DNA from: Cyanidioschyzon merolae
Taxonomy: Eukaryota
Reading direction: 5' to 3' (one strand)
NCBI GenBank assembly: GCA_000091205.1
Contig: AP006501.2
Length of the DNA: 64,000 bases
Shown here: piece after piece, positions 5,740-32,800 of the stretch
Layout: every line of letters begins with the position of its first letter
How positions within the stretch are numbered: position 1 is the first letter of the stretch
Program-made: the position numbers and the translations under genes
The notes under the pieces: generated by a model
Databases searched by the model: none
Told to the model about the DNA's origin: nothing
Seen by the model: the letters and a program-made list of their open reading frames with translations, nothing else

Positions 5740-6126
5740 ATGGCAAACGAAGACAAACCGGGAGCAACCCAAGAAACTGGAAGAACTAGTCGACTGCAGG
5801 ATATGGCCGAGCGGTTCATGGCGGCGGGTGTCGGTACGTCGAGAGCCGGTTTCGACTTCGCACCGGAGGCAAACGAGACGAGCCCCGAGGGCGGGGTCCC
5901 GATCCCTGGGGCCGGTTCGCCACCTCGAAGTAGCAGTCCCATGGCTCGCTCACCCTCGCAAGATATCTGGAAACGCACCTTTCATCCTGGCGGTCGCTCG
6001 CCACCAGATCGCAGTCTTTTCGACAGTGCAAGAGAGCACGTCGAAGGCGCGGCTAGCGGTCAGAGTGTAAGTGAGATATACGCCCAGAAACGCAACCAAT
6101 ATTATGTTGCGCCTCGAAAGGACTGA
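5740..6126 (+). CDS. hypothetical Ser/Pro-rich small protein (weak)
   Basis: This is an ATG-initiated 128-aa ORF with no recognisable domain. It lies in a lower-GC stretch with few ORFs. It is listed only as a possibility. Confidence 0.15.
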   Translation: MANEDKPGATQETGRTSRLQDMAERFMAAGVGTSRAGFDFAPEANETSPEGGVPIPGAGSPPRSSSPMARSPSQDIWKRTFHPGGRSPPDRSLFDSAREHVEGAASGQSVSEIYAQKRNQYYVAPRKD

Positions 6127-8914: not shown

Positions 8915-10009
8915 ATGTCTTCCACTCACGCCAGCTTACAGGTTTCAGAGGATTCAGTGAAGAAGCCCCTGGTGGTGGAGCGTGGTAAAGATTGCGCCCC
9001 CTCAAGGCCGAGTCTCTGGAGGCGGCTCGTACAGCACGGCAGCGCAGAGTACGTCACCGTAGGGAGTATGTGTCTTAACTTTTTCTCCTCTACTTGTATT
9101 GTGGTCGCGAACAAGTACGCGATGGATTCCCTGGGTTTTCGTTATGGATCAACTCTTACGCTCTTTCACTTTATCTGTACCTCAGCGCTTCTATACGTCA
9201 GTTCGCGCTGTTTTGGCCTGTTTGAACGAAAGCCGTGCGAGCTCTACAAGGTGGCAAAGCTCGCTGCTGGCGCTGCGGGCTTTGTCGTGCTGACCAACCT
9301 CTCCCTTCAGTATAACTCTGTGGGCTTCTACCAAGTCATGAAAGTGATGACAACGCCGACAATAGTCGTGATCGAGGCTCTCTTTTACCAGAAGCAACTG
9401 GAGAACCGGCTGAAGCTAGCACTGACCCCGGTCTGTCTCGGGGTGGTGCTGACGACCGCTACGGACTTTCGACTCAACCTGCACGGGACGCTGATTGCCT
9501 CCGCTGGTGTTATTGTAACATCCTTGTACCAGATTTGGTCTGGAACGATGCAAAAGACGTTGCAGTTGGATGCCCTCCAATTGCAGTACTACACGTCGCC
9601 TATGAGTGCGCTTTTTCTGCTGCCTTTTGTACCGCTCATGGATAATTGGCGGCCTGGAAGTCCCGATAGCATCTTCGCCTATGCATTCACACCATATCGC
9701 CTGGGAGTGATTCTGATGACGGGCGTGCTGGCATTTCTCGTGAACATCAGCATCTTCATGGTCATCGGACGGACCAGCCCTGTCACCTATAATGTTCTTG
9801 GGCACGCGAAAACCGCAGTCATTATATCCAGCGATTTCCTCTTCTTTGGTCGTCCAAGAGATCTCCGAAATTTCGCTGGCGTGCTGCTCACCATGATCGG
9901 TGTGGTCTGGTACACGCATTTGAAGCTCGAAGACCAGCGTTCTGACGCCAAGTCAAAGGTGAATGATTCATCTGGATCGATTTGCAAGGCGAGCACTGCG
10001 AGTCCATGA
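8915..10009 (+). CDS. nucleotide-sugar / triose-phosphate transporter family (TPT, SLC35-like) membrane protein
   Basis: The start is an ATG. The protein has a multi-TM profile and the TPT-like core LSLQYNSVGFYQVMKVMTTPTIVVIEALFYQK. It is 364 aa, typical for Golgi NSTs. Confidence 0.75.
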   Translation: MSSTHASLQVSEDSVKKPLVVERGKDCAPSRPSLWRRLVQHGSAEYVTVGSMCLNFFSSTCIVVANKYAMDSLGFRYGSTLTLFHFICTSALLYVSSRCFGLFERKPCELYKVAKLAAGAAGFVVLTNLSLQYNSVGFYQVMKVMTTPTIVVIEALFYQKQLENRLKLALTPVCLGVVLTTATDFRLNLHGTLIASAGVIVTSLYQIWSGTMQKTLQLDALQLQYYTSPMSALFLLPFVPLMDNWRPGSPDSIFAYAFTPYRLGVILMTGVLAFLVNISIFMVIGRTSPVTYNVLGHAKTAVIISSDFLFFGRPRDLRNFAGVLLTMIGVVWYTHLKLEDQRSDAKSKVNDSSGSICKASTASP

Positions 10010-11350: not shown

Positions 11351-12424
11351 CTACGAAAAGAGGCGGCATAGGGCAGCTCGCTCAAGATTCGCTTCGATTG
11401 CCTTGGATGCCGACAGGTAGTACCATTCTTTCTTGCTCTGCCCAGTTAAGTAACTCTTTGCATCTCCGTATTCAAAGAAATAAGGTGGCCAGAGCACTCT
11501 TGTAGTCGCCTTGTTATATATGACATCCACATCCGCGACGCCTCCCGATTGAATAACCTTGTTCACATCGATTGTGCTCAGACTCGCGTCCAGACGAAAC
11601 CGCTGAAGAATCTGCTCTGCACCGAGCGCCGATATCGCGTATGCTGCAGTGCCATAAGTTAGATGCCGAATATGGGGCAGCACAAATCTCGCAGTACAAT
11701 TGATGCCCAGAGTCTCGAGCTTGAGTTCCTCAGAATAGCCAGCACGCAGCAGAGACACCAGCTTCAATTCCATCTGTAAGACTGGTCGGTCTTTGGTACA
11801 TGCTGCTGCAGCAAGATCGGCAACATTGCTTTCCCATAGCGGCAGAATTTCTAGCGAGGCGTCGTCTTCAAGTAAGAGCGCTGTTCGACAACCCGCACTG
11901 CGGACCCAGAGCAGTGCCAGTAAGTGCGAAACGGAGCACGCAACCTGCGCGTCTATTGACTCCAACTTGACCGGACCTGTGAACGCGAAGACGCGTTCCT
12001 GTCTTTCTGCCAAGGACCCAGTTTCGGCTATATCCCTTCGGTAAGCATCTTTCAGGTCCACCTCTGAAACGCCTTGCAGGTGCAGCACGTTCGGCTGATG
12101 AGCGAACCATTGAACGACTTGCGCGAGCCCCGGGCTCCGTGGCGTCTTCTCGAGGCCTACGACCACGAGACAGTGATCTTTTCTATCCAGCGATAGCTTT
12201 TCCAGAACCTGCTCCGTCAGTTCGTCACCTGTCTTCCAAAGGCGAAACGCGGGTTTCTCGAGTGCCGCGCTCACAGAAGGCAGCCGCCGCCGCTGCACGA
12301 AAAGGCGCCGGTGCAGCACCAGCGTTGCAGCGATGAGCACCAAGGCTACCAGAACAAGCACCCGCAGGACCCGCCTCGATAACGGTCGACAGACAAGATA
12401 TTCCATATTTTTGTCCTCACGCAT
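11351..12424 (-). CDS. glycosyltransferase family 25-like type-II membrane protein (paralog A)
   Basis: The start is an ATG. An N-terminal signal anchor LVLVALVLIAATLVL is present. The GT25-like motif is ACSVSHLLALLWVRSAGCRTALLLEDDASL. It is a clear paralog of the ORF at 39062..40120, sharing the blocks PGLA.VV.WF, SVSHLLAL.W and LWPPY. Confidence 0.55.
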   Translation of the reverse strand: MREDKNMEYLVCRPLSRRVLRVLVLVALVLIAATLVLHRRLFVQRRRLPSVSAALEKPAFRLWKTGDELTEQVLEKLSLDRKDHCLVVVGLEKTPRSPGLAQVVQWFAHQPNVLHLQGVSEVDLKDAYRRDIAETGSLAERQERVFAFTGPVKLESIDAQVACSVSHLLALLWVRSAGCRTALLLEDDASLEILPLWESNVADLAAAACTKDRPVLQMELKLVSLLRAGYSEELKLETLGINCTARFVLPHIRHLTYGTAAYAISALGAEQILQRFRLDASLSTIDVNKVIQSGGVADVDVIYNKATTRVLWPPYFFEYGDAKSYLTGQSKKEWYYLSASKAIEANLERAALCRLFS

Positions 12425-14256: not shown

Positions 14257-15438
14257 ATGGTGCTAAATATACCTCGGCCGTTGAGCAAGGTTGCGGGTCC
14301 GCGGGAGATTGTTCGTCAGTTCGTGCCGAGCTGGTTTGCAGTGACCATGGGTACGGGGATCCTGGCGGTAGTCATTAAAGACTTCCCGTTCCAGTTTCCG
14401 CACCAAGACGACCTCGGCTGGGCGTATTGGTTCTTTAACGTCGGATTGTTTGGGATCTTTTCGATTCTCTTTCTGAGCCGATGGATTTTTTTCTTTAACG
14501 ACGCCATCCCAATGTTCCATCATCCTGTTCAATCCATGTTTCTTGGCGCTATTCCAATGGGTCTTGCAACAATCGTTAACGGGTTGGTGCTCTTTGGCAC
14601 GCCGCACTGGGGCAACAGTGCAACGATAGCGGCCATCGTGCTTTGGTTTGTGGATGTGGGCCTCGCGGTCCTTTGTGGGCTGCTTGTTCCGATATTCATG
14701 CTCACGACACATTCGCACGCTTTGGAAAGCATGAGCGCAGTCTGGCTTCTACCAGTGGTTCCTGGCGAAGTCGCAGCGGCCTCTGGAGGTCTCCTGCTCG
14801 CGGTCGTTCAGAACCAGCGGCTTGCTCAGAATATTGCGTTCATCAGCATGCTCTTATGGGGATTTTCGGTCCCGCTCTCAATGAGCATTTTGGTGATATT
14901 CTTCTTGCGTCTCGTACTGCACAAGCTACCGCCATCAGATCTAATTATTAGTTGTCTCCTTCCGCTGGGCCCGATAGGTACCGGGGCGCTAGCTGCCACC
15001 GAACTGGGACTCTACGCGAAGCGCACCTTTGAGAACAGCGGTTATGGCGTCTCCGCGACAACTTTCCAGAGCTTGGCCTCTGCCACCCCGGCAATTGCCA
15101 TGTTCGTTGCTACTGCTTTGTGGGGCTATGGCGTCTGGTGGCTGGTGATTGCCATTTTTGCAATCGGGCACACGCTAAGAAACCGACTACCATTTAATCT
15201 GGGATGGTGGGGTTTGATCTTCCCTCTGGGCGTGTTCACTGCATCAACAGCAGATCTTTACAAATTAACGGATTTCTATCTGTTTCGCATACCAGCAGCG
15301 GTGCTTATATGCATCCTATTCGTGCTGTGGTGGGTTGTTATGTTCCACACGGTGGTACGAGCTTATTCAGGGGAGTTATTTTATGCACCGTGCCTTGGAC
15401 CACGACAGGCTTGTACGCAAAACGAGCTTGAGATTTGA
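14257..15438 (+). CDS. TDT-family (TehA/Mae1/SLAC1-like) C4-dicarboxylate / anion transporter
   Basis: The start is an ATG. The protein has ~10 predicted TM helices. Its N-terminal signature WFAVTMGTGILAVV is typical of the tellurite-resistance/dicarboxylate transporter family. Confidence 0.7.
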   Translation: MVLNIPRPLSKVAGPREIVRQFVPSWFAVTMGTGILAVVIKDFPFQFPHQDDLGWAYWFFNVGLFGIFSILFLSRWIFFFNDAIPMFHHPVQSMFLGAIPMGLATIVNGLVLFGTPHWGNSATIAAIVLWFVDVGLAVLCGLLVPIFMLTTHSHALESMSAVWLLPVVPGEVAAASGGLLLAVVQNQRLAQNIAFISMLLWGFSVPLSMSILVIFFLRLVLHKLPPSDLIISCLLPLGPIGTGALAATELGLYAKRTFENSGYGVSATTFQSLASATPAIAMFVATALWGYGVWWLVIAIFAIGHTLRNRLPFNLGWWGLIFPLGVFTASTADLYKLTDFYLFRIPAAVLICILFVLWWVVMFHTVVRAYSGELFYAPCLGPRQACTQNELEI

Positions 15439-16082
15439 GTGGGTCATCTATGAATAGTCAGCTGCAGTCGATAAAGTATCCACATTGTCGAAGTGAACTG
15501 GCAACACTTATGAATCTGCGGTTCAAGAAAATCAGTGCTGGATTTCAGGCCGCTCCAGCAGGTGCAAACCTTACCGTCCTTGACGCGGAAGCACGCGGCT
15601 GTCAGCGCTCCATATGCAGTCGTGCTCACAGAGTGCCGGATCAGGTAACTTGCGTAGTTAAACAATTTAAATCAGTTCCGCATTCCAAGGTCCATGCAGA
15701 ATGAACTAGAAGCATAAGGAATACACGCATACCCGAGCTCGCGAACTGGTGCGTGACTAGTTTGTTTACGACCAAGATGCATAACAAAACTACCATTAAC
15801 TAGTTTTTTCCAGTGACAAACGTTTACTTAGGCCAGCGTTCTCCGAATATGCGCATTTTTTTCCATTGACAAAACTACCATTGACTAGTGGAATGCACGC
15901 CTCACTTGCCAACGCGCTGACCAGCGCTGATACCAGGACGCGCTGCTACGCAGCATCCGCTTCGGTGCTCCTAAACTTTAGGGCGATACTCCAGCGCTGT
16001 AGTGTTTGCTGGATCAGACCTGAATATGACTTAGTCAACTTTAAACGGTTCCTCTAGCGTCTTTCTCAATAGAGTTTTGAAG

Positions 16083-17369
16083 ATGCGGATCGCGAGAGGT
16101 GTTTTGTTCTGGCTGCTCTGTGTGAACTTTTGCTGGTGCCACTTATCCATCGGTGCGCTGCGGGCGGTACGAGCGATTTCCGTGTCTGAGGAAGTCTCGC
16201 TTCCAGGGTTTCGCCTCTTTCCTCGGGTTCCTCAGTCTGAGGCGAGTACTATTTTCTTTCGGGATCTGCTGCTCCCGAAAAAAACTTACAGTATCGACTG
16301 GAGCGCGGAAGCTTCGAGCCGATCGCTGACGAGTGGCTTGCGCAATGATAGAGGCACGTTTACGACAAGCGAGGGAAACGTTACGTACGTGCAGACGTTG
16401 CGGGACGCTGACGGACACCTCTATGTGTGTCGTGTACCAGCAGATGAGCCTGCAACGCCCAACAACGTTGAGACGGTATCCATGGATGTGGAATCGGAGC
16501 CTACCATCGATCTGGACGCGGCTCTGCAGAAACAGCTGAAGGACAAGTGCTTCTACCGGCAGGGAGGTTGGCGGGTGTTCGAGTTCTGTTTTCACAGGCA
16601 CGTGCGCCATTTTCACTGGGAGAGACGGCGCTCGATGCCTGCAGAGCGCGAGCGAATTCGTGCGGAGATTGAACAACTTCTGAAGGAGCACGTTTTCCCC
16701 GAAGGCCCGAATGGCGAACCTGGTAGAAAACGTTTCCTGCGGCTGCTGATACAGGCTCAACAAATACCACCTGACGGGAGCCTGAACCTCATCATCAAGG
16801 ACGAGGTCTGCATGGGCATGTACGATGAAGCACTCGACCGCGAAAGGATACGTAACGGCACGAATTTGATCACCAGTGGTGCCTTTTTCAGCGGGCGACG
16901 CTGGCAGGCACCCCCGCAAGCAACCAACGGTGCTGCGTCGCGCGTCGACCGTGGGTCGGACGCTGAGTACCGCCTGGAATCCGATGGACGTGTGCTCCCA
17001 GTTGCAGGGGAAGGTATCGGAAGCGCCGTCGCTTACTTGGTGCAACCGTATACGAGAGACGGGGATCATTGCGACATAACAGGACGTCCACGCCGCACGA
17101 TGGTACGCTACCGTTGCATTGAGGATGTTCCGCGGATTGCAATTTTCGATCCATCCCCCGTGGTAAGCTCGTTCATTGCCTCCGTGCATGAGCGAAGCAC
17201 CTGCGAATACGACCTCGTTTTTGTGACGGATGCGGTCTGCTCACATCCAGCTTTTGTTTCACCTGCACGCCATTCGGTGCCCGTTGTATGCGAACGCATG
17301 TCATCTGAGATGGAAGCGATAAACATTTCGCCGGGTAGCGCGCAGCATCCTGCTCTGCATCGTAGTTGA
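16083..17369 (+). CDS. OS9: OS-9/Yos9-like ER lectin with mannose-6-phosphate receptor homology (MRH) domain
   Basis: A signal peptide MRIARGVLFWLLCVNFCWC is present. MRH block CFYRQGGWRVFEFCFHRHVRHFH matches OS-9 (cf. OS-9 CLL..WWTYEFCYGRHIQQYH). Block CDITGRPRRTMVRYRCIED...STCEYDLVFVTDAVCSHPAF matches OS-9 (cf. CDLNGRPREAEVRFLC...SCSYVLTIRTPRLCPHP). The ORF-track start at 16077 is TTG. The ATG is at 16083. Confidence 0.75.
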   Translation: MRIARGVLFWLLCVNFCWCHLSIGALRAVRAISVSEEVSLPGFRLFPRVPQSEASTIFFRDLLLPKKTYSIDWSAEASSRSLTSGLRNDRGTFTTSEGNVTYVQTLRDADGHLYVCRVPADEPATPNNVETVSMDVESEPTIDLDAALQKQLKDKCFYRQGGWRVFEFCFHRHVRHFHWERRRSMPAERERIRAEIEQLLKEHVFPEGPNGEPGRKRFLRLLIQAQQIPPDGSLNLIIKDEVCMGMYDEALDRERIRNGTNLITSGAFFSGRRWQAPPQATNGAASRVDRGSDAEYRLESDGRVLPVAGEGIGSAVAYLVQPYTRDGDHCDITGRPRRTMVRYRCIEDVPRIAIFDPSPVVSSFIASVHERSTCEYDLVFVTDAVCSHPAFVSPARHSVPVVCERMSSEMEAINISPGSAQHPALHRS

Positions 17370-18109: not shown

Positions 18110-20428
18110 TTAACGCCATTGAATGATGCTTAGACCGTCTCGAATAGGCAAAATGACCTGCGTAACGCGTGCATCTTCCAGTACGTGTTGGTTAAAGGCA
18201 TGAACCGCGTCCATGAGCTTCCGACTGCGTAGCGCGATGCGCTCTGCATGTTCGCCAAATTCAACATCCTCCATTTGGGCGTGTTTCTGCTTCCCGTAAA
18301 CAGGCCGAAACAGAACATTATCGACAAGCAACGCACCATTCGGAGATAAGAGTCTATGATCCAGGATGAAATCAAAGTAGGTGATGTACCGGCGCTTGTC
18401 AGCGTCGAGATATATGAGATCAAAAGGCGCAACAGCTTGGTCGCGGAAGCGCTCCAGTACATCCAAAACGGCGCCTCGGTGCAGCTCAATAGGCGCCAGC
18501 TGACCAGCAACACATTTGAAGAACTGCTCGGCGGTGTCTGCAGCGTTGGGGTCCTGCTCAACCGTCACCACAGTTTGGACGTGGTTCGGACCCATGGCGC
18601 CAGCAAAACACAACGTTGCATAACCGGTAAACGTGCCCAGCTCGAGCACACGTTGCGCTCGCAACAGCCTAGCGACCGCGTGCAGGACGGCACCTTGGAC
18701 AGGTCCACTCATCATGTGCGCGGCTTGCGGGAACTTGCGATGCGTCTCGGCCGCGAGCTCCCGCAGGATTGGTGCTTCGGTACCCCAGGGAGCGGTGCGG
18801 CTCATGGTCTGTGCGTACCAGTGCAGCTCATTGCTAGCGCTTGCGAGTGCAAGCTCGAGACCTCGCTGGCACTCGGGGCTACAGCATCCCGAGAGCCGGT
18901 GGCGACAACGTGCGCACTGGATCATCCGTCGATGGCAAGGTACATGCGCACAGTGCAAGACGTCCAGTGCTGGGGCACTGCACGTTTCACATCGGCTCAA
19001 AATATCATTCGTCACCGGGGTTTTGAGGCGTTCATCGAATACATAGATGGATCCTTTGAATTTGGGATCCCATCCTTGACGATGCGCCTCTGCGGCGTAC
19101 GAAACGACGCCGCCGGCAAGTCGCTCCACGCGTTGAAATCCGAGGCGGTTCTCCAGATAGGCAGCTGCTTTGACACAGCGAATTCCGCCTGTGCAAAAAG
19201 TGAGTATCCGTCGATCTCGAGGCTCGTTTGCTAGACGCGCCTCAAGCGCTTTCCAAGTCTCCCGGTAGGTGCGGGTGTTCAGGGGGCGAGCCTCAGCGCT
19301 CCCGAAAAATGTTCCAAGCTGCGTCTCGTAATCATTCCTCACGTCGATCAGAATGGCGTGCGGGTCTTCCAAAGCCTGATGCCACTCTGCCGGGCTCAGC
19401 TCTCGACCAGCTTGCGTCAGATCAAGCGGCTCCTTGAGACCGTCAGCGACGATTTTCTGCCGACAACGGATATGTAGGTTACGAAACGGAGGCTGTGCAG
19501 CGAATTGAGCTGCCGACAGCAACTGTGGATCCAAGTTCAGATAGACACCAGCGAGTTCAACCAGGTACGGAGACTCGGCTTCGAGCAACCGCTTCAACGC
19601 GTCGAGGCTACGCAGAGGAACTGCGACCTGCGCGTTGATGCCCTCCGGTGCTATGTAGATGCGACCGCGAATCGCCAGTGGTTTCAGGTAGAAACGTAGA
19701 CGAGAGGCGAGCTCTTCCGGCTCTGCAATGGGCACAAAGCGATAGAATGAAAGCATTTGGATATCTTCGTCTACGGCATCGAGCTCCTTGGCTGGATAAA
19801 ATGGCGGCAACATCCGTGCCCGCTGCCGTTCTCGTACCCCGTCGGTGTTTCGGGGCCGCTGTCGAAACTCCTCTATCATAGAATCGCTGATTTGCGGGTC
19901 GAAACGCAGATACAGAGGGGCTTTGGCTTGCCAAGCCTCTTTTAACAGTGCATCAGAGTCAACGAGCTCCAGCGAGTCTGGCCTGTGTGCAACAAGGACA
20001 ACGTGAAGCGGTGTGCCCTCGAGTCGTTGCAGCGCTGAGAAGCGTTCCCATATCCCTTTTCGAAGCAATTCAAGACTCGGCTCGGTTCCGGGAACAAAGA
20101 TGCGTCCTTTCCGGTCACTGGCCGCCACCCGAAGAGCAGCTCGTAGTTGCGGTGCTAAATAGACCCGAAATACCCACTGGGCACCCTGGAACTCGCGTTC
20201 TGGTTCACGAGTGCTTCCGGTCACATAAGCCAGATCCGGCACGTTTGCTGATAGGTGCCGAAGCACGCTCCGCTGCGACCGGCGACGGCATGCGGCGACC
20301 TTGAGACCTCGCCGAAACGCAAAACAGAAAGTTTTCGAAGGCGAACTTGTCCAGAAAGCGACGGGTTGTGCGAAAGCGACTGCCTTCAACTGTGTACACG
20401 GCGACATCCACAGCATGAGCAAACGCAT
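18110..20428 (-). CDS. fusion protein: TrhO/YceA-type rhodanese tRNA U34 hydroxylase domain + class-I family-3 O-methyltransferase (TrmR/CCoAOMT-like) domain
   Basis: The start is an ATG. A UPF0176/TrhO N-domain is present (MLSFYRFVPIAEPEELASRLRFYLKPLAIRGRIYIAPEGINAQV). A rhodanese domain with the catalytic Cys follows (ILTFCTGGIRCVKAAAYL) and then a Cys-rich tail. The C-terminal ~220 aa form an OMT family-3 fold (VLELGTFTGYATLCFAGAM...FDLIYLDADKRRYITYFDFIL...LLVDNVLF). Confidence 0.7.
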   Translation of the reverse strand: MRLLMLWMSPCTQLKAVAFAQPVAFWTSSPSKTFCFAFRRGLKVAACRRRSQRSVLRHLSANVPDLAYVTGSTREPEREFQGAQWVFRVYLAPQLRAALRVAASDRKGRIFVPGTEPSLELLRKGIWERFSALQRLEGTPLHVVLVAHRPDSLELVDSDALLKEAWQAKAPLYLRFDPQISDSMIEEFRQRPRNTDGVRERQRARMLPPFYPAKELDAVDEDIQMLSFYRFVPIAEPEELASRLRFYLKPLAIRGRIYIAPEGINAQVAVPLRSLDALKRLLEAESPYLVELAGVYLNLDPQLLSAAQFAAQPPFRNLHIRCRQKIVADGLKEPLDLTQAGRELSPAEWHQALEDPHAILIDVRNDYETQLGTFFGSAEARPLNTRTYRETWKALEARLANEPRDRRILTFCTGGIRCVKAAAYLENRLGFQRVERLAGGVVSYAAEAHRQGWDPKFKGSIYVFDERLKTPVTNDILSRCETCSAPALDVLHCAHVPCHRRMIQCARCRHRLSGCCSPECQRGLELALASASNELHWYAQTMSRTAPWGTEAPILRELAAETHRKFPQAAHMMSGPVQGAVLHAVARLLRAQRVLELGTFTGYATLCFAGAMGPNHVQTVVTVEQDPNAADTAEQFFKCVAGQLAPIELHRGAVLDVLERFRDQAVAPFDLIYLDADKRRYITYFDFILDHRLLSPNGALLVDNVLFRPVYGKQKHAQMEDVEFGEHAERIALRSRKLMDAVHAFNQHVLEDARVTQVILPIRDGLSIIQWR

Positions 20429-20673
20429 GAGAAGAGAACGTGTCTCGGAGACCCGATACCTCCCGTGTGTCTAGACGGAAGCCGTACCCCTGTTTCCCTT
20501 AAGCGCCGGTGCACGCGAACTCGTACCGAGTCGAGGCAACGACCAGACAAGCCGAGGTGCCGGTACGCTTTCACCAGCCTGTTCCGAGCTCCGAGTCCAA
20601 TCAGTGCAGAAAACTTTTACAACGGCGTTTCGTTACCCTCTGGGCAGTGCAGGTGCCACGAAATGAAGGAACT

Positions 20674-20679
<6 letters not shown>

Positions 20680-20711
<32 letters not shown>

Positions 20712-20712
20712 A
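20680..20712. repeat. (CAG)11 microsatellite
   Basis: The run cagcagcagcagcagcagcagcagcagcagcag is directly visible. It lies in the intergenic space upstream of the TrhO-fusion gene. Confidence 0.9.
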
Positions 20713-23599
20713 GTATGTCGCGGTGTAAGGTTCGCGGAAACGCGAGCCTGAGGCAGTCGGTATCCGCCGTCGAAGAGTTGGGTCCAAGCTTATGTGCGAT
20801 ACCTGCAGGTTCTGTGAGAAACTTCCTCCAACGCTTGTTTGTGTTTCTATAGCATCGGAGCTGCGAACCAGAGTCCAATGGATATGTGGATGCTATCTAT
20901 ACCCAGAGGGAGGTTTCCGATGTTCCGCAGACGCCTCCGGAACGCACCTACCCGTAGAACAATCGTCTTCTCGAGGGGTGCGCGTTGAACGAACTGGCAA
21001 CCGTCCCTGCGCCGAGCCTAACACCGGCTCTTGAAGCGGTGCTAAAAACTGCCTCCAAGTACCTGGTGCCGTCACCTGGGAAGTAGCACGGCGAGCAATG
21101 CTCTTAGCCGCCACTATCACAAGAGGAGCGCACTTGATACTGCTAGGTTTTGTGCGTGCACGAGCCAGTTGTCACAGCAAACTGCATACGTTTATGCGGT
21201 ACCCCGTCTGAAGAAGCCCTGCAAGATAGCTCTGGGTTCAGATGCCTATCGCCGAGGTCCTCCACATGCAGTAAAGCTGATTCGGATAGAAATCAGCCCG
21301 TGCTACGCCCGTGGCGGTTTGAAATAGAAGCAGCTCCATCTTGTGCACCTGGACCTAATCGCTAAACTTTCGGTCTCTTCCCAGCGTCACAAACAGCAGC
21401 CCCTGCGAGCGTTGGCTGCGACTGCATCCTTTTCCTCTTTCTCGTATTCGGCACGAAAGACGTCGGCCAATCTTTTGCCTCAAGGTGCATTGCCAGCAGT
21501 CGAAGGGCCGTGATAGCAGCATTCAAGTGTCAATTTCGTAGCTTCCCGCGGTTGTCTACACATCTGAAATGCAAGCGGATATTGCGCTTGACGAATCTTT
21601 GTCGTAGGCAGCCGAGGAACGCCCCTCGCAAAGGGTAACACTCGACTGTGGTCAGGCGCTCCTAAATATCCATCGAACCTCTTGATGTTCCGATTACCGC
21701 CCAGTTTTGCACGTAAACGGTTGGTTCATCGCCGGATACATGCCTTGGGCTGCTACAGATGGCTCTCAGCGATGCTCTCCTCGGTATTCGGGCACGCTGT
21801 CGTGTCCTTCGATCATGGGCTTCTTCTAAGTGGTCCCCAAGGTGCTGTCGCTGTCTGTTGTACAAGAAAGCGAACGGAGCCTCATTGAATACAGGATTTG
21901 TGGCACGGCACCTTGTTCATCATGGACCAAGTACCGGATGGTTAAATATATTTTTCGGAGAACAAGTTTACAAATTTCGATGCTTCTACGCAGCCTCTAC
22001 CCACGGCTGTGACGCATTTTTCTCCAGAAGCAATCGTAGTGATCACTGAGGGCAGAGTGCAAGACCCTTTTGCATGCAAACAAAAGAGACGATATCGTCT
22101 GGAAGTATATCTTGTGACAGGTATCGAGTTGCGGTCGACAACTGTTTCTTGAATGCACACAAAGAGAGAAGGGTTTCTTTTTAGAACGAACTCTACTATT
22201 TGAGGTGAAAGGTTCAGCGAACTTTCAACAAGATCTTGCGAGCAAGACTTCAAAGGACGAAGTCGAGTACTTTTCATTATATATCCAGCGACGTGAATCG
22301 CTCCACCGGAGAGTTGCCCTGAGACAGGAGGATCCAAAACTTGAGCGATACGTGATCGAATACGCAGCAAAATAGGGAAAGGAGAAACGCACAGGCTGTA
22401 AGAATGAAATCGGACCATGATAATAGCGGTTACACGAACTCTTGTTTGCGAGCATCGCAAATCATCTTGCTAATGACGGTGACGTAACGAAATCCAACGC
22501 AAACGCGTCGAATGAGCCAACCAGAAAAGTGCGGCGGAGAATCCTGAAACCATACATGAATCCATACGCCCCTCTCCCTCCAGTTCGATTTTCGAGGCTT
22601 TGCATCACAGAAAATAACTCAGGGGAGACTCGAAACGCAGGAACAGAACGACAAGCTGAGTGTTCTATTCTCGTCCGACGCAGGTGGTACCACGTGCATG
22701 AAGCACACAGGTCGGAAGCTGTCGCTTCATGGACAAGTGCCCGTGAATGCGCCAAGAGGTTTTGCCACGCACGTACAAATATATTTTTATCGTATGGAAT
22801 TCAGCACCAGTAGTTCCGCATCAGCACACATAACGCTGGCCAATGTTTCCGAAATGTGTCTATACCACTGCATTGAGCAACACCAAGCCTTCTCTCTGGG
22901 TTCATCCATGCTCAGTGCCAATTCAATACTCTGGGAAAGAAAGTCTGGGCTCGCTTCAGCCAGAGCACAACTGGCGATCACCGGTCGGATATCCTAGCTT
23001 CAGTTGCGCGTGACGCCACCTGCCGGGGCACTCGCCAAACATGGCTACCTAGTGCACCCTCTTGCAGCAAATGCTCATCACACTTTGATGTATTCGCAAA
23101 ATACCTCGTTCATAGCCTCGCTTCGCATAGAATGTCGGTCTTGGTCGCTGCCGGCGTTTAGCCTACTGAAATGTTTGCAGTATCGCCTGAGGCTCGGATC
23201 GACCAGGGCGCCTACCTTCCGTTCGGATACATTCCCGCGAAACGGATACGCACGCGGGGCCAGCACATGGTACACCTCTTCATTGGTGGATGACAAGCAA
23301 AAGCCCCGATCGCCAACCGACCATGCATTCCACACAGACACTTTTGTAAAGGAGTGATGCGGCGTGCAGCGCTCTTCCGAACAGCCACCTGTGTGCCACG
23401 CGCCGTGCCGCAACGGTACGCCTACCGACGTGCAGACGCTCCGAGTATAAGCCAGCGAACACGAGTCCCGATTCTGCGTCTGATGAATGACACCTCAACT
23501 GGCCGCCCCCAAAGATATTTTGAAGTGCCAATATATCTCCGTGTTGTGTCTGCGCATCGACGCTACAACTATGATTATCACGGACATTTACGGGCGACA

Positions 23600-24392: not shown

Positions 24393-24473
24393 GCGCCATT
24401 GGAGACGCATATCTGGAGCGTTCGCGGTATCGCTTGCGCTGCGCAGGCTGTGGGAAACTGCTTGTACTTGCCC

Positions 24474-25784
24474 ATGGGTTTTCTATGGTGGTTGGGTATG
24501 GGATCAAGTCGTGAACCGCGCGAGAGTCGCCGACTAGCGCGTCTCGAGAAGCGCATATCGGTTCTCAGTGGTCGACTCGAGGCTTGGCGACGACGGAAAG
24601 AGCGAACGCTAGCCGCCTTCCGCCTTTACGCCTTCTTCTTTGTGTGCATCTGGACTGCTTACGCCTTTACTTTCAATGACTTGTTGTTTCTGGGGGCATT
24701 TGCGAATAGCAGGCTCAGGGCTGTTCTCGTGCTGTCGACGAGTGGTGGTGCATACCTCTTTTTGTACAAGATCGCTTCGCTCTGGTATCGTTGGCGCATC
24801 GAGTCCGCCGAGGAGAGACTTGCCAAGTATCGGGAAGAAAAGGCCGAGCTTTTAGAACAGCTGAAAGAAAGCACCCGGTTCTACGAGACAATAAAGCTGC
24901 TGGAGAAGTACGGTGGTGTACCGGACGCGCTTCGCCCGATCAGCAGCGCGGAAGAGTCGAGGGCAGCGTCTCCAACGGCAACATCTGGCACACCTGGAGC
25001 AGTGCGGGCACCTGGAGAGCAAGAAACAGCTTCCAGCTCGGGCGTTGCATCACCTAGCGCAGGCACGAGTGGTTCTCCGAGAAGCTCTACAATTGCCCGC
25101 TTGACCAACCGCGTCGTTGATGTCCTAACCAAGGACGAAGAGGACTGGGATGAGCCCCAGACTGCCCGTGAAGCGTTCCTTATAGGACGCCTGCGCGAAA
25201 TGCGGGAAGCGCTCACACGTGAGCACAGCCAGCGTCTTCAGCTGCAACGTGCCCTCGAGAGCCTCGAACGGCAGCTGTGCGACTTACGGTCGCCGTCACA
25301 TCCAGAGCCTGCAGCATGCCCTTCGGATCCTTCTAATCTGGAAAACAGGCGGATACCAGAGAACAATCCCGAGACTTCTGGCAGAGGTGTGAAGGCGGCA
25401 GCAGTCACCCTGTCCACGAGCAAGGCTGGTTCTCTTCATATGGAGGACGCGGGCGTGTCACCGATCACTGGTCATGGACAGCGACGTGGCGTCTTGAATA
25501 ATTCCCCAACTGAGCCGGTGTCGCGAGCACAGCTCAACGACGAACCCATGGATTCAGTATTGAGCTCCAGCGTGGATAGGTCAGCCCTGTCGCTGCACAA
25601 ATCGAACGAGGATGAATCCGAAATCTGTGCACAGCGCAGCGGGCATCCACGGCAACCCAGCACTGAGCAGAGCGGTACTCCCATTGGGCACGGCCCATCG
25701 AGCGGATCGCGGAACGAGTCGCCTCTGCAGACGATGCAAAAGCTCCGCCGCCAGCGCCTAAACCCTTCTCGTACAGAGCGCTAA
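24474..25784 (+). CDS. lunapark-like membrane protein (N-terminal Gly2, coiled coil–TM–TM–coiled coil), no zinc finger detected
   Basis: Candidate starts are MGFLWW at 24474 and MGSSREP at 24498. The architecture is RLARLEKRISVLSGRLEAWRRRKER (coiled coil), then two hydrophobic helices (LYAFFFVCIWTAYAF / AVLVLSTSGGAYLFLY), then a second coiled coil (ERLAKYREEKAELLEQLKESTRFYETIKLLEKYG). This mirrors Lnp1/lunapark. The Cys4 zinc finger expected downstream is absent, so the call is tentative. Confidence 0.35.
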   Translation: MGFLWWLGMGSSREPRESRRLARLEKRISVLSGRLEAWRRRKERTLAAFRLYAFFFVCIWTAYAFTFNDLLFLGAFANSRLRAVLVLSTSGGAYLFLYKIASLWYRWRIESAEERLAKYREEKAELLEQLKESTRFYETIKLLEKYGGVPDALRPISSAEESRAASPTATSGTPGAVRAPGEQETASSSGVASPSAGTSGSPRSSTIARLTNRVVDVLTKDEEDWDEPQTAREAFLIGRLREMREALTREHSQRLQLQRALESLERQLCDLRSPSHPEPAACPSDPSNLENRRIPENNPETSGRGVKAAAVTLSTSKAGSLHMEDAGVSPITGHGQRRGVLNNSPTEPVSRAQLNDEPMDSVLSSSVDRSALSLHKSNEDESEICAQRSGHPRQPSTEQSGTPIGHGPSSGSRNESPLQTMQKLRRQRLNPSRTER

Positions 25785-27144: not shown

Positions 27145-28641
27145 TCAGTGGGGTACTGCACCAGTGGGATCCGGCGGATTCGACTCTTGTCTATCGTATT
27201 GATGAAAGGCGCCCTCTCCGATGAGCTTTTGCGCAAACAGATGATCATAGATACGATACGCTTTCTTGTCGTCAATACCGAGCAACAGGCGTACATCTTT
27301 TCGACGGACAGCGCCTGTGCGAGCGTTCTCGCGCAAGAGGATCTCTTTGCACACCAGGTACTGGTGCGGCGAAAGTCGCAGACCAGCACAGAGCTCGGTC
27401 TCACTCCTTGTCAAGAGTTCGATGCCATCCGTACAAAAGAGCTCTGGTCCAGACTGGCGTCGGAGACTGCTCACTTGCCCATTCCAGTACGCATACAGAT
27501 CAATGCCGTTCACTTTCAGCACGCGTTCACGAATTTGCTCGGCATCCGGTCCCGTGAGCGCACCATGTACTCGCTGCAGCAGTTCTTCTGAAGGCAACAG
27601 TCGACGACCGACCCCTGGGGTAAGTTTTGAAACGTCCACAAACGCTGCTGCCGCTGCCAGCTGCGTCGCCTGCAACTGCACTCGAGCTTGATAGAGCGCT
27701 TCGATGCGCTCTCGCAAATGGCGTTCACGAAGCATCCCTAACAGAAGATCTTCGTGAATTTGAGGGTTGAGCGAATGCCGAAAAAATGGTTTCGAGTGCT
27801 CCCAGAGGTCACGCAGATCTGGACTCATGGCTTTCTCTACACGACTCTTAGCCTTCAGGTCACAGAAACCAGAACCCAGGGCGAAGCGTTTGCGCTCGAC
27901 CCGCTCATCGAGGCAGTGATTGTAGATCTCCATGACGCGGGTCTTGAGTTCAACGTCACGAGCGTTTTCCGTGCGTTCGATTTCCATGTCTGCCACGATT
28001 TCCTCCCTTTCGTTATCCCATTCGTAGATAAAGTCACCACGCTTCGGCATGTATCCCGACATTTCATCAATGGTGTACTCGTGCATCACTTTGAGACTTT
28101 TCGGGTCTGGCTCGGGTAGCTCTTGAATTTCTTGGGTAGCAGGTCGCGGCAGCAATGTTGGACGAAAGATATCCGCGATTCCTGTTGGTGTGGCCTCCAG
28201 GTAAACACGCGTATAATGCAGTTCTGCGTAGCGTGCATTCTTGCCGCCTCCGATCATGGTCGAAACATCGGACCAGTTGCCGATGCCGTAGTATTCGAGC
28301 GCTTCGAGGAGACGTTCCTCCTCAGCACCCGTCCAGCTCTCTTCGAAAACGTCCACATCTACGACCTCCAAAACTCGGTAATCGTGATTGGAACGATGAT
28401 CATCAGTTTCTGCTCCGATGGAGAAACAGTCAATACAGAGGTCGTACTCGACGCAGACCGCACATCGAATGCGGACGGTGTCTGAGATATCCCGAGCGCA
28501 GTTGTTACAGTGGTATCTGCCTGAAGTGCTCGTTACCGGTTGTTTGGATGACTTGCGAGCACCTCCGCGACGTTTTCGGGAGCGTTTCACATCGATATCC
28601 GCAACGTCACTGCTAGCAGAGTGCCCTGCAGTGGAGTCCAT
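27145..28641 (-). CDS. ADA2: transcriptional adaptor ADA2 (ZZ zinc finger + SANT + SWIRM)
   Basis: The start is an ATG. A ZZ finger YHCNNCARDISDTVRIRCAVCVEYDLCIDCFSIGAETDDHRSNHDYRVL is present. The SANT domain is WTGAEEERLLEALEYYGIGNWSDVSTMIGG. A C-terminal SWIRM-like segment is LLTRSETELCAGLRLSPHQYLVCKEILL. Confidence 0.85.
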   Translation of the reverse strand: MDSTAGHSASSDVADIDVKRSRKRRGGARKSSKQPVTSTSGRYHCNNCARDISDTVRIRCAVCVEYDLCIDCFSIGAETDDHRSNHDYRVLEVVDVDVFEESWTGAEEERLLEALEYYGIGNWSDVSTMIGGGKNARYAELHYTRVYLEATPTGIADIFRPTLLPRPATQEIQELPEPDPKSLKVMHEYTIDEMSGYMPKRGDFIYEWDNEREEIVADMEIERTENARDVELKTRVMEIYNHCLDERVERKRFALGSGFCDLKAKSRVEKAMSPDLRDLWEHSKPFFRHSLNPQIHEDLLLGMLRERHLRERIEALYQARVQLQATQLAAAAAFVDVSKLTPGVGRRLLPSEELLQRVHGALTGPDAEQIRERVLKVNGIDLYAYWNGQVSSLRRQSGPELFCTDGIELLTRSETELCAGLRLSPHQYLVCKEILLRENARTGAVRRKDVRLLLGIDDKKAYRIYDHLFAQKLIGEGAFHQYDRQESNPPDPTGAVPH

Positions 28642-29890
28642 TGGTGAACGTGGCGCCTGTAGCCGTGCTCTAGTATGTACTGAATCACAACGCTAGAGCG
28701 GAACACTAGATAAAACTGTACAAGCGCTAACAGCGCTAAAAAGGCAGCCGCTAGCGTCCGTGAAACGCTCGGTGGTCTTCACCACCAGACGGGAAACGAG
28801 TGCCTCGTTGTTACAACGGACACCTCGTTCACAAAACGCTCAGTCGAAACAGCAGAGACGCGCGCTTTCCCACCGAATACGATGAAGTCAGAAAAGGTCG
28901 CTCAGTCTCGCTATGGAGTCAGCGGCACACAGCGTAACAACGTCCACACCGCCGAGTACTCCCAGCTGGTGCGCTAACTGTGGGTGTACCCGCTGCTAGC
29001 AGGTGCCTCCCAGGCTCTCTAGAGACCTCGTGAGTTTCTTTCCGAGAAGCGTCGCTCAGCTCAGTCCTGTTCTGTGCACGGAACGTATTGGGTCGCGGTT
29101 GCCGCTGTCTGAAACCTAGCCAAAGCGCACCACCTTGAACTTTGACCCTTTTCGTGCCTAGGGGTCGTCCACAGGTAGGCACTGTTGTGGCGTGTTCGCC
29201 GCAGAGTTTTCCACGTTTTGGCTTTTATTGGCAAAGCGGAACGAGTTTCGTTGAGTTTGCGTTCCTGAGGCAGGTACGCTCAGGTTCTGTACCAGAATTA
29301 AGAGAATCAGGGGAATACCTATAGGAACTGCACAATATTAGATGCATACCCGCCTCCAGGCGTTATGATCTTGTAGAGCTATTCGAAGGTGGAAAACGTG
29401 TACGCTCCTTACGAAACACGTGTTTCGTTGCCAAGACTCTTCTAAGGAATAGGTGACTGCGATCAGCAATAACGCTAACGAAAAGGCGTGTGGCTCGAGT
29501 TAACCAAGATCAGCAAGCGTCCTTTTCACGGAGTAGGTGCGTGCTATTACCAGCAACGTTAACTAAAAGGCGTGTGCTCAGGTTTTGCAACGGGAAACGC
29601 GTTGCCTTTCCCGGGAACTTCGAGAACGCGCTCAATAACGTCTGAGGAAAGCACATTCGTTTCTGCGGGAGAAGCGTCACACTTACGTCGTTCTCGTTTC
29701 CGTCGGTGCCAGAACAGAGAGGAACCTCGTGAAACGAGATCGGCTTCCTATTCATACTCAAAAGCTCTGGTCCCGTGTACACATACGAGGGCTCAAGCAG
29801 CTCACCAAGGCGTCTCTCTGGACCGCTCAACGTGCGACGGCCTCCGCACTGCCTGCGTTGCCACCAGCACTCAACATCTGTAACGGTGCC

Positions 29891-32800
29891 ATGTGCCCAG
29901 AGACAGCTACGCCTCCGCAGGACGCCACTGCTGCGGCCGCATCGGAGACCTCGGGACCCCGAACGGGCTGCTGCTCCACAAGCCTGCAACATATGCCGCC
30001 CGGGCAGCAGCATGATACATATCTCTGTCGTTCGCAAATCATACCACTCCTGGAATGGATCGAGAGCGTCTCGGATTGTATGCTTGGAAACGCGAGTGGT
30101 AACCGCGTGGACGGCTGCTGCCCAAAGGCGACGGATGTGAACACCAGTCCCGCACCTAGAATACCTGATGCGAAAGGCGGGTATCAACGAATCAAAAGCA
30201 ATTCCTTGACATCAGAAGCGCTGTGCACGGCTCTCCATGCCCTGACAGAGGCTCGAACTCCAGCTGCCTTCCATGCCTGCACTCGACAAGCTTTTGGCAA
30301 GCTCATTGAAACCACGAGAGCGTATGTCGTAAGCGATACTCGTGAGGCGCCCGCGAACATGTTAGAACTTTTGCTCGATGTACTTTTGCTCACGGAGGTG
30401 GTTCTGTTTGGGAGCAATCTCATCTCCTCCTCGTTGCAGTGCACCTGGGTTACTTGGCTCGACCGGTGGCTCACCGTCTGGTTGGAACGCTGGGCCGCGG
30501 TACCGCGAAACACGGACGCTAGTGCTGCTGTGCGCCAGGTATACCAGCAAGCACGGTTGAGAGACGTGCTTTACGCATGCGAAACTGTCGCATCTGGTGC
30601 ATGTCAAACGGGAAAGAACCTAGCATTCGCTTTCGAGCGTTTGTCGTTACATCGAGCTGCTGGGGTAACCTCGCACGTATCGGGTACGGTGCATCAGGCA
30701 GGGTTGGTGACTCATGCCCTGTTGCATCCCGACTCCAAAACATCTCCGAGCGGCACGACGCTTCCGGGAAGCGCAGCGATGCTGGGTATCGAAAGCTGCC
30801 GCTCGTTATTGACGACTCAGGAGCCGCTTACGTCAAGCAGCAGCGGAGTCAGGCATTGTTCCACGGGCCGTGCTTCCGATTCGTGCTCGAATGCACACGA
30901 AGCACCAGCTACTAGAGCAGATGCGCACATGCTATTGCACGACGAGTTCCGGCAAGCCGAAGTTGACCTGGTTCGAGAATCCGCTGGCAACCATGCGGTA
31001 ATACCTGCTCCGAACGCGCTTACGTCCACCTTGAGCACGCAGCAATCTACCACGGACGACGCTCGGAGCGGCTTTGTCTCGACCTGTGCCGTAGGAGCAC
31101 TACCGCCGTCGTCGCCGACGTCGTCGTCGTCGTCGTCGACACCAACACCTCAACAGGAGGCGATATCCGCAGCGTGTGCTGCAGCACCAGCCGAGAGCGC
31201 TTGTGCACTGGATCATTCAACGCGAGCGAGTGCCTGGATGTGGCTTTTGGTTGTTCTTGGGCACCTGAGAGGCCCGCAGTCGACACCGTTTCCAATCGAA
31301 GATGATAGAAATGAGGCCGGTGTCTTGCTCTGGATGGCCTGCCTGGAACCGGTACAACTCCGCGGCCTCTACGCGCTCAGCAAGAGCAGCATCTTCCGCG
31401 ATGCTCTGCATCAGCATAAGAACTGGAATGAGTACGTTCCTCTACTGGTTCATGCCTCACTGCGGGAGTATGAAGCATTGCTCGCTGCGCGTTGTCGCCT
31501 AGAGCCATTCACAGTGGAGACAGCCATGGCCGAAGCTTCCACGCAGTGGAGGCTCCCTCCTGAGCTGTGCGATGACGTTGCTCGCTGTGCTTGTCGTCTT
31601 GCGAGTGAAGTGACTGGCCCAAGCAGCGTGCCGGTGCTTATGTCGCTGCTCTGTAACGAAACTGTGCCTCGAAGCGTCAGCTGGAACGCGGCAAAGTCCC
31701 TGGCGCTGCTCGACATTCGAGACGGCATAGCACCGTGGCATCGTCTGGAATGTCAGCGTCTGACTGCCTTCAGTCAGCTCGCTTATCTGCGGAGCAGGCT
31801 CGAGCATGACACCGAGGCTACACGAGAACTGCAAACAGGAACGGAGGAGGCCTCAGCGGTCTCTGCAGATTCGACAGAGGATCCCAGTGTACCAGGAAGG
31901 GCACTGGCTACTGTTGCCCGCGCTGCTGATCCTGCTGATGCTGGTGCTTCTTCAGAGGCGTTTTCCAGAAAGGAGCCGCAGCATTCCTGTTCCTGGCTCG
32001 CCAGTGCGGCACAGACGCTCGAGCGACTCCATCACGAGCATCCCACAGACCGTACGCTTCGCACGGTTGCAGCGGAAACACTTGCTTTGCTGGTAGAAAG
32101 AATTCCAGGTCAGCGATATGCCGAAGCGTTACTCCTGCGGCTGTTGATGGAGAGCACCGATCTTCCGGATCGCTTCTTTCAACAAAGCATTCAGAAAATG
32201 CATCGAGAGACGCTGGTGAGCGCCTGTACGTTGCCGATGCTCCAACAGATCTGGAGCAAATGCTGCAGCCTCATGCCCTGTCACTTTCGCTTCCTCCGTA
32301 TCATGGTCCAGGAAAACGGTGTCGATGCGATGCACGAAACTGCAGACGAGCTGCTGCAGCGGGCGCTCTTGGCATTGAATGACCATTCCATGATGTTGGT
32401 CAAGAGCGCTCTCGGCTTTCTGGAGGCTTGGTACCTCGCGGAGAAGCGTTTGCGAGCGAGAGGCGCGTCGATACCGACTTCGCGTCTTCTTGTCCGGATT
32501 GGTTGTTTCCTCCAGGAGTTTCTTGCTCGGAGTCCAGCGGAGCGCTATGTGTCCGCATCCAGACTGGGCGTCACGCTACTTCCGATGCTGCTGCGACACG
32601 GTGCTACCGTTCGGGAGCTCTGGGAGTGCCTCTGCGGGGCGCGTGACCCCAGAGAAGGCTCCCTGGAAACCACGACGGGCGCTCCACAGGTTTCTGGGAA
32701 GCACTGCGATTCTTCGGCTGATAGAACGCACGAGCACCAGCACCAGCATGAGCAAGTGCGGGAACGCTTCCATCGTGTCTTGGAAGGGAGCACGCTGCCG

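Follow-up and report, generated by a model that had tools for sequence, protein, structure and literature searches.

The 64,000-nucleotide stretch of Cyanidioschyzon merolae DNA analysed here (contig AP006501.2 of assembly GCA_000091205.1; hereafter the window) contains, on the minus strand, an open reading frame (ORF) in which a tRNA hydroxylase module of the TrhO family is followed by an O-methyltransferase (OMT) domain of family 3. C. merolae is a red alga with a nearly intron-free nuclear genome. The translation of the ORF matches the C. merolae 10D reference protein (XP_005539069.1 / BAM83033.1) at 772 of 772 residues, and this complete identity places the window in nuclear DNA. The reference gene model is exactly the same ORF, and an in-frame stop codon 15 codons 5' of the ATG leaves no possible longer start.

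A Pfam search finds four domains in the order UPF0176_N, Rhodanese, Rhodanese_C and Methyltransf_3, and the remaining features lie in an N-terminal region and in two short motifs (Table 1). The motifs quoted in a first-pass annotation, which had been made from the letters of the window alone, were located as it described: CTGGIRC at residues 412-418, RVLELGTFTGY at residues 593-603 and DADK at residues 675-678. Current database labels are less specific, the protein being a 'hypothetical protein, conserved' at NCBI and a 'Rhodanese domain-containing protein' in UniRef; the JGI pipeline names cluster members 'predicted sulfurtransferase/predicted O-methyltransferase YrrM'.

Table 1. Position and basis of the features of the fusion gene (window coordinates; aa, amino acid residues; pLDDT, predicted local distance difference test)
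Feature	Residues	Window position	Strand	Basis
Whole ORF, 772 aa plus stop, ATG start	1-772	18110..20428	-	ORF list; equals XP_005539069.1 / BAM83033.1
Presequence-like disordered region	1-82	20183..20428	-	Composition; pLDDT ~30-45
Beta-grasp (ubiquitin-like) module	84-192	19853..20179	-	Conserved; no Pfam match
Low-confidence linker	193-222	19763..19852	-	Predicted structure, alignment
UPF0176_N (acylphosphatase-like)	224-326	19451..19759	-	Pfam PF17773, E 4e-21
Rhodanese domain	345-446	19091..19396	-	Pfam PF00581, E 4.7e-8
CTGGIRC active-site loop (= E. coli C200-C206)	412-418	19175..19195	-	Motif; invariant in 30 orthologues
Rhodanese_C, Cys-rich	458-521	18866..19057	-	Pfam E 1.4e-15; aligns to 9j5o C-terminus
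Class-I S-adenosylmethionine (SAM)-dependent, cation-dependent OMT (Methyltransf_3)	551-769	18122..18778	-	Pfam E 1.8e-30
Basic segment RIALRSRK	730-737	18218..18241	-	Aligns to TrmR K177-R181 (tRNA backbone contacts); two alignment methods

Distribution of the fusion

More than 50 orthologues have their four domains in this order, and several of them are complete MMETSP transcripts. Red-algal members were found in Cyanidiococcus (73% identity), Cyanidium (55%), Pyropia and Rhodosorus; the other members come from many diatoms, Phaeothamnion, Chrysophaeum, a pelagophyte, the raphidophyte Chattonella and the chromerid Vitrella. All of the named lineages that carry the fusion in this search have red-derived plastids. 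Diatom orthologues align over 89-100% of the C. merolae protein at 31-37% identity, and the proteins of Nitzschia, Seminavis and Thalassiosira contain all four Pfam domains as well as the N-terminal module. The first-pass annotation had described a single uninterrupted polypeptide and had named a frameshift joining two genes as what might undo that description. The polypeptide is borne out by the ORF list, the reference model and the complete transcripts of orthologues. An origin of the fusion by frameshift, misassembly or read-through is effectively refuted: the ORF is continuous and identical to the finished reference model, the fusion is shared by dozens of species, with complete transcripts among them, and the linker in the AlphaFold2 (AF2) model is helical and unbroken. 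No point in favour of an artefact was found.

The architecture and its functional reading are not new, since the fusion was published in 2019. Sakai et al. (2019, Nat Commun 10:2858; PMC6599085) reported a yceA-trmR fusion in Phytophthora sojae, P. ramorum and Phaeodactylum tricornutum, drew on it in identifying YceA as TrhO, and took the eukaryotic trhO homologues to suggest xo5U-type modification in eukaryotes. The claim of the first-pass annotation that such a pathway is not usually discussed for eukaryotes was, to that extent, overstated. The Phytophthora fusions are known to us from that paper alone and the diatom orthologues from sequences; the published fusions have the same order of TrhO followed by OMT, and the OMT domains form one clade in the tree described below. 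The fusion figures in PMC6599085 as a comparative-genomics clue only, and that paper does not cover the red-algal members, the beta-grasp domain, the targeting or the relation of the OMT domain to TrmR. New here are the extension of the fusion to red algae, pelagophytes, raphidophytes and chromerids, the plastid signals of the diatom proteins and the beta-grasp domain.

PMC6599085 refers to P. sojae, P. ramorum and P. tricornutum as 'three bacterial species', although all three are eukaryotes. This label may be the reason why the eukaryotic or organellar implication of the fusion was left undeveloped.

The TrhO half

Membership of the TrhO family is established by sequence criteria. The NCBIfam TrhO equivalog NF001133 matches residues 226-470 at 187.9 bits, above its curated cut-off of 170, and the best solved relatives of this half are the TrhO structures 9j5o (E 3.5e-39) and 4f67; no paper describing the 9j5o structure was found in the accessible literature. 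In E. coli TrhO, mutagenesis has identified essential residues in two places: the CTGGIR loop (C200, T201, G203 and R205) and a basic sheet on the tRNA surface (K112 and R114). The C. merolae counterparts C412, T413, G415, R417, R321 and R323 do not vary among 30 fusion orthologues. R321 and R323, which lie in the basic strand HIRCR at residues 319-323, were mapped to K112 and R114 via the 4f67 and 9j5o alignments and not by a direct E. coli alignment. The Rhodanese_C domain contains C480, C483, C493, C498, H499, C505, C508, C516 and C520, of which the cysteines are near-invariant in the same 30 orthologues, and this Cys/His pattern suggests putative metal binding.

TrhO, YceA and YbfQ proteins (9j5o, 4f67; human homologue TSTD2) have the same UPF0176_N, rhodanese and Rhodanese_C domains, the same CTGGIRC loop and the same basic strand, to which the C. 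merolae protein adds the OMT fusion, a presequence and the beta-grasp domain. Hydroxylase activity is predicted from this conservation. The TrhO (UPF0176/YceA) assignment made in the first-pass annotation holds, with one correction: the N-domain, which it called ACT-like, is the acylphosphatase-like UPF0176_N.

Two other types of TrhO fusion occur in bacteria, namely an RluA-type pseudouridine synthase joined to TrhO (for example in Pirellulaceae) and TrhO joined to glutathione S-transferase domains (Acidovorax). Proteins P0079, P0082, P0083, P0085, P0086 and P0089, together with P0080 and P0087, are among both types.

The N-terminal region and its targeting features

An extra N-terminal region of about 230 residues had been noted in the first-pass annotation; it is present, and can be resolved further into a presequence and a conserved beta-grasp module. 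Residues 1-64 contain no Asp or Glu but 8 Arg, 8 Ala and 7 Ser, and the composition of the disordered region as a whole suggests that it is probably an organellar (plastid) targeting peptide. The module that follows is kept from red algae to diatoms, with the family motif LR..L.LSGREKRGRVF, and its predicted structure is a beta-grasp fold with pLDDT >90.

The structural neighbours of the beta-grasp model include MoaD/SAMP1, and the rhodanese fold with its catalytic Cys is also that of sulfurtransferases. One could thus read the rhodanese part as a TSTD-type sulfurtransferase with the beta-grasp domain as its MoaD/Urm1-like sulfur carrier partner. Such a reading is highly improbable, since the protein has the full TrhO architecture, with the equivalog above its cut-off and with the TrhO-specific N-domain and basic strand. 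The UPF0176_N domain is precisely what a TSTD-type enzyme of the kind considered in the first-pass annotation would lack. CIDE-N and PB1 domains score equal to or above MoaD as neighbours of the beta-grasp model. The role of sulfur carrier was rejected for this domain because it is N-terminal and internal to the chain and has no free C-terminal Gly-Gly, so that it cannot be a thiocarboxylate carrier of the MoaD/Urm1 type.

The ochrophyte orthologues have additional features around the beta-grasp domain that the red algae lack, namely a highly basic helix (NQELVERRLEVAREKRQAR...) ahead of it and a poly-Pro linker (DPNAPPPPPPP) after it. In diatoms the poly-Pro linker occupies the position of residues 193-222 of the C. 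merolae protein, its low-confidence linker. The OMT domains of the ochrophyte orthologues also contain two lineage-specific inserts.

Signal peptides were sought in 57 full-length orthologues by scanning the first 45 residues for a hydrophobic core (Kyte-Doolittle >=2.0), with composition-matched shuffles as controls. A core is present in 28 of the 57 proteins, compared with 20% of the shuffles, and many of the orthologues without one are visibly truncated gene calls. In 15 of these 28 the core ends in an [AGSCT][FWY] junction, for example GASA-FQQ, VAS-FQP, VEA-FTP, TTA-FQQ and VTS-FQF (the hyphen marks the junction). In diatom plastid import an 'ASAFAP' motif with Phe at +1 marks bipartite plastid targeting. 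The signal peptide followed by an A/S-F junction in the diatom orthologues is, as judged from the sequences, such a bipartite plastid-targeting signature, and the Pyropia N-terminus MSAFAVV has the form of a red-algal Phe-type transit peptide. The diatom N-termini had also been considered as short mitochondrial-type presequences, an interpretation that was rejected because the full sequences are signal peptides with A/S-F junctions. The targeting features of the orthologues and the red-plastid phyletic pattern together make the plastid the best-supported site, and the plastid is most likely where the C. merolae enzyme would act.

The O-methyltransferase half

The residues of the OMT half were read from an L-INS-i alignment that includes the 5zw3 chain of Bacillus subtilis TrmR, against which the TrmR numbering was verified. 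All of the SAM and Mg residues (G62, E85, D133, K136, D159 and N160 in TrmR numbering) are kept. The catalytic core G62, D133, K136, D159 and N160 is universal in family-3 OMTs and is therefore not discriminating. Glu-85 is common to TrmR and 17 of the 18 fusion members aligned, whereas enzymes resembling caffeoyl-CoA O-methyltransferase (CCoAOMT) have Asp.

The tRNA-backbone contacts of TrmR are R86, R90, R178, R181 and K136, of which R86, R90 and R178 are TrmR-specific (Ryu et al. 2018). In all 18 fusion members the equivalent of Arg-178 lies inside an RRxRK segment, which is a gap in SynOMT, 3tr6, 2hnk, SafC, 3r3h and all of the flavobacterial OMTs. The basic segment falls at the same place when the sequences are aligned with hmmalign against an independent profile. 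It was scored by hmmalign column; a strict motif regular expression matched only 7 of 42 known fusions. According to the AF2 model, this segment stands at the start of a long helix (residues 726-751) that follows a disordered insertion loop (residues 706-725, pLDDT <50). The corresponding loop of TrmR turns ordered on binding the anticodon stem-loop, and the modelled loop and helix of the C. merolae protein mirror it. Compared with TrmR/YrrM (5zw3/5zw4; clade 2gpy, 3ntv, 8k1f), the domain has the same family-3 fold with D133, D159, N160, K136 and Glu-85, and shares Arg-178 and a basic residue at 181 in the helix after the insertion loop; it differs in that its insertion loop is longer and acidic, and in that TrmR is a stand-alone homodimer whereas the C. 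merolae OMT is a domain of a fusion. The bacterial and cyanobacterial catechol OMTs (3cbg, 3tr6, 5n5d, Flavobacteriaceae) show the highest pairwise similarity to the domain and the same catalytic core, but these enzymes and the plant CCoAOMT (1sui) have Asp at position 85, lack the RRxRK segment and are not fused to RNA enzymes.

The generic family-3 OMT Rv0187 converts free 5-hydroxyuridine (ho5U) to 5-methoxyuridine (mo5U) but does not act on ho5U within tRNA; the opposite holds for TrmR. The methylation chemistry therefore comes with the fold, and a TrmR is distinguished by its recognition of tRNA. The presence of a TrmR-like basic segment, in a domain tethered to an enzyme that binds the same anticodon loop, supports a TrmR-like function.

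In addition, two proteins from metagenome/Logan sources, P0248 (723 residues) and P0250 (769 residues), join a SpoU-class RNA 2'-O-methylase (PF00588) to a Methyltransf_3 domain of the same clade (227-230 bits). Their SpoU domains are nearest to RlmB/TrmH, below the cut-offs; their basic segments read RRMLK and KRRRR, respectively, and P0250 also has a plastid-type SAA-FVP junction. The same OMT clade thus seems to have a second, undescribed fusion to an RNA enzyme, and this fusion, together with the basic segment that it carries, provides independent evidence for an RNA substrate.

Proposed function and its alternatives

With moderate confidence, we propose that the protein is a nuclear-encoded, organelle-targeted (plastid most likely) bifunctional enzyme that makes mo5U34. 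The sequences show the domain content, the conserved catalytic residues, the persistence of the fusion across red algae and red-plastid lineages and the targeting features of orthologues; from these we infer both catalytic steps, the tRNAs that are modified, mo5U as the product and the site of action. Once the protein had entered its organelle, most likely the plastid, its TrhO module would use O2 to convert U34 of family-box tRNAs to ho5U, and the tethered Mg2+/SAM-dependent family-3 OMT would then methylate the 5-hydroxyl group to give mo5U34. The modified base would widen and stabilise the decoding of four-codon boxes where the tRNA set is reduced. The N-terminal beta-grasp domain may have an accessory role, in contacts with RNA or with proteins (oligomerisation or partner binding).

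The points that weigh against this proposal concern the kinship of the OMT domain, the compartment, the origin of the two halves and the literature on plastid tRNAs. In phmmer searches of the PDB, the OMT domain scores 75-80 bits with generic cation-dependent OMTs (3tr6, the TomG-like 5n5d, 3cbg (SynOMT) and 7cvu) but only 44 bits with B. subtilis TrmR (5zw3) and 37 bits with 8k1f; the CCoAOMTs score 40 bits (alfalfa, 1sui) and 53 bits (8gxn). In a neighbour-joining tree with 200 bootstraps, built with limited sampling and on saturated distances, the fusion OMTs form a clade (52-72%), as do the TrmR proteins (100%). SynOMT, SafC and CCoAOMT fall outside the group that the fusion OMTs form with the TrmR clade and the OMTs of Bacteroidota, and plant CCoAOMT (1sui) is the most distant group. 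A sister relationship between the fusion OMTs and TrmR has a bootstrap of only 7-10%. These comparisons rule out a plant-type CCoAOMT, but they neither show nor exclude orthology of the OMT domain to TrmR. Of the TrmR signature arginines, only R178 is kept in the C. merolae protein (R734), R86 and R90 being replaced by Q625 and A629. Within the fusion family R86 is found in 14/18 members, R90 in 0/18 and R178 in 18/18, and validated chains of the TrmR clade also vary at these positions (M90 in 3ntv, I86 in 8k1f). The term 'TrmR-like', which the first-pass annotation had applied to this half, is largely right as far as it refers to mechanism and to some diagnostic residues, in particular the basic segment with its Arg-178; it does not extend to placement in the TrmR clade, and the lower score with TrmR than with catechol-type OMTs goes with this lack of demonstrated orthology.

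The nearest stand-alone relatives of the OMT domain are OMTs of 213 residues from Bacteroidota (Flavobacteriaceae), at 35-40% identity. The Olleya member of this group scores higher with SynOMT and CCoAOMT than with TrmR, and its gene lies directly 3' of genes for a 3-hydroxyanthranilate dioxygenase, an Amidohydro_2 (ACMSD-like) protein and an aldehyde dehydrogenase (contig L001, region 3950-6642). No trhO was found near it, and its position beside genes of the 3-hydroxyanthranilate pathway suggests a small-molecule substrate of the catechol type. One may therefore ask whether TrhO makes ho5U while the fused OMT is a generic catechol-type enzyme that acts on another target, such as a small molecule, a hydroxylated nucleoside or another RNA hydroxyl, the tRNA product then being ho5U or some other derivative and not mo5U. 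The similarity to the small-molecule OMTs 5n5d, 3cbg and 7cvu, the aromatic-catabolism genes beside the closest stand-alone relatives, the missing R86 and R90 and the promiscuity of family-3 OMTs would all agree with such an arrangement. It is nevertheless improbable, as the fusion has been stable over >1 billion years of red-lineage evolution, which argues for consecutive steps, and as the basic segment that all fusion members have is absent from small-molecule OMTs. The fusion of the same OMT clade to SpoU RNA methylases speaks against it too, and O-alkylations are the only known fates of tRNA ho5U (PMC6599085; Ryu et al. 2018).

The top matches of an exhaustive profile search with the OMT domain were tandem double-Methyltransf_3 proteins of 475-553 residues from marine metagenomes (P0226-P0232, P0236, P0237 and P0239). 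Their scores are inflated by the two domains and say nothing on the ancestry of the fused OMT.

With regard to the compartment, the C. merolae presequence alone cannot separate plastid from mitochondrion: it is rich in Arg, Ser and Ala and free of acidic residues, which fits either organelle, and it has no clear Phe motif like the MSAF of Pyropia. The fusion is also present in Phytophthora, oomycetes that lack plastids (PMC6599085), so that its function need not be plastid-specific. The same mo5U34 chemistry could accordingly take place in the mitochondrion, or in both organelles through dual targeting. This location seems rather unlikely, because many ochrophyte orthologues have a signal peptide with an A/S-F junction that is diagnostic of the complex-plastid route, and because the named lineages found by sequence search all have red plastids.

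The origin of the two halves gives no further support to a plastid function. Bacteroidota account for nearly all of the closest bacterial TrhO genes among the matches listed, with 34-41% identity across about 300 residues that include the Cys-rich tail. The C. merolae protein and Bacteroidota TrhO have the motif EG[VI]NAQ in common, the corresponding residues being EGINGT in Bacillus and EGVNGG in Legionella; this shared motif was itself one of the patterns of the TrhO scan, which is a caveat on the result. On these comparisons both catalytic halves look Bacteroidota-like, with no indication of cyanobacterial ancestry, and a plastid function can therefore not be argued from endosymbiont ancestry. 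A Methyltransf_3 ORF within 6 kb of a Bacteroidota trhO was found at 0 of 80 loci among the matches listed, so that no operon-type precursor of the fusion was found. Recruitment of the OMT to tRNA may have been a separate event from that of the Firmicute TrmR, by way of a similar basic RNA-binding segment gained in its own lineage.

In the literature, the presence of mo5U in Synechocystis RNA is a point in favour of the proposal. Against it stands the green chloroplast of C. reinhardtii, where no xo5U was found and where the U34 of quartet boxes is considered unmodified; decoding of four-codon boxes by unmodified U34 is the current view of plastids (PMC8877259), and a preprint on tRNA modification in the Arabidopsis chloroplast does not mention xo5U. 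Our search of the literature, mass-spectrometry data included, found no report of either mo5U or ho5U from plastids, diatoms, red algae or oomycetes.

A more general and more tentative proposal, which we put forward at somewhat less than even confidence, is that the plastids of the red lineage (red algae, ochrophytes and chromerids) retain mo5U34 on family-box tRNAs by means of one imported beta-grasp/TrhO/OMT enzyme, whose two halves are Bacteroidota-like and whose OMT may have been recruited independently of TrmR.

Neighbouring genes

No tRNA genes were found in the window, and the fusion gene is thus without a local link to its putative substrates. An ORF at 29729-37900 (+), about 9 kb from the TrhO-OMT gene, encodes a protein of 2723 residues with THADA/Trm732 domains (DUF2428, TPR_Trm732_C). 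Trm732 is the cofactor of Trm7 in 2'-O-methylation at tRNA position 32 and hence another anticodon-loop modification factor; in a eukaryotic genome, the closeness of the two genes is probably a coincidence. Other neighbours encode a triose-phosphate-transporter family protein (8915-10009, +), an SLAC1-type anion channel (14257-15438, +) and an ADA2 transcriptional adaptor (27145-28641, -). The ORFs at 11351-12424 (-), 16077-17369 (+) and 24399-25784 (+), of 357-461 residues, have no Pfam match, and the N-terminus of the second of these resembles a signal peptide. The 5' flank of the fusion gene's ATG contains a GCN-type trinucleotide repeat of about 33 nucleotides (window positions ~20672-20705), which reads as 11 Ala on the plus strand (ORF 20255..20728) and as 10 Cys in the upstream frame of the fusion gene.

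Implications

The naming of the OMT half has consequences for surveys of algal genomes. P0212, a fragment of 231 residues in the same 90% cluster, has been automatically named 'caffeoyl-CoA O-methyltransferase', and a phylogenomic survey of the lignin pathway (PMC4455696, its Table 1) credits C. merolae with a genomic CCoAMT, a match that may be the OMT domain of the TrhO-OMT fusion. When the OMT half or its fragments are named CCoAOMT, they could be miscounted as lignin-pathway genes.

If mo5U were indeed present on the plastid tRNAs of the red lineage, the 'superwobble' picture of decoding by unmodified U34 would be limited to the green lineage. C. merolae offers efficient gene targeting and few introns, and its cells have a single plastid and a single mitochondrion. 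With these genetics and this simple set of organelles, the question of xo5U in eukaryotes that was raised in PMC6599085 becomes directly testable in this alga.

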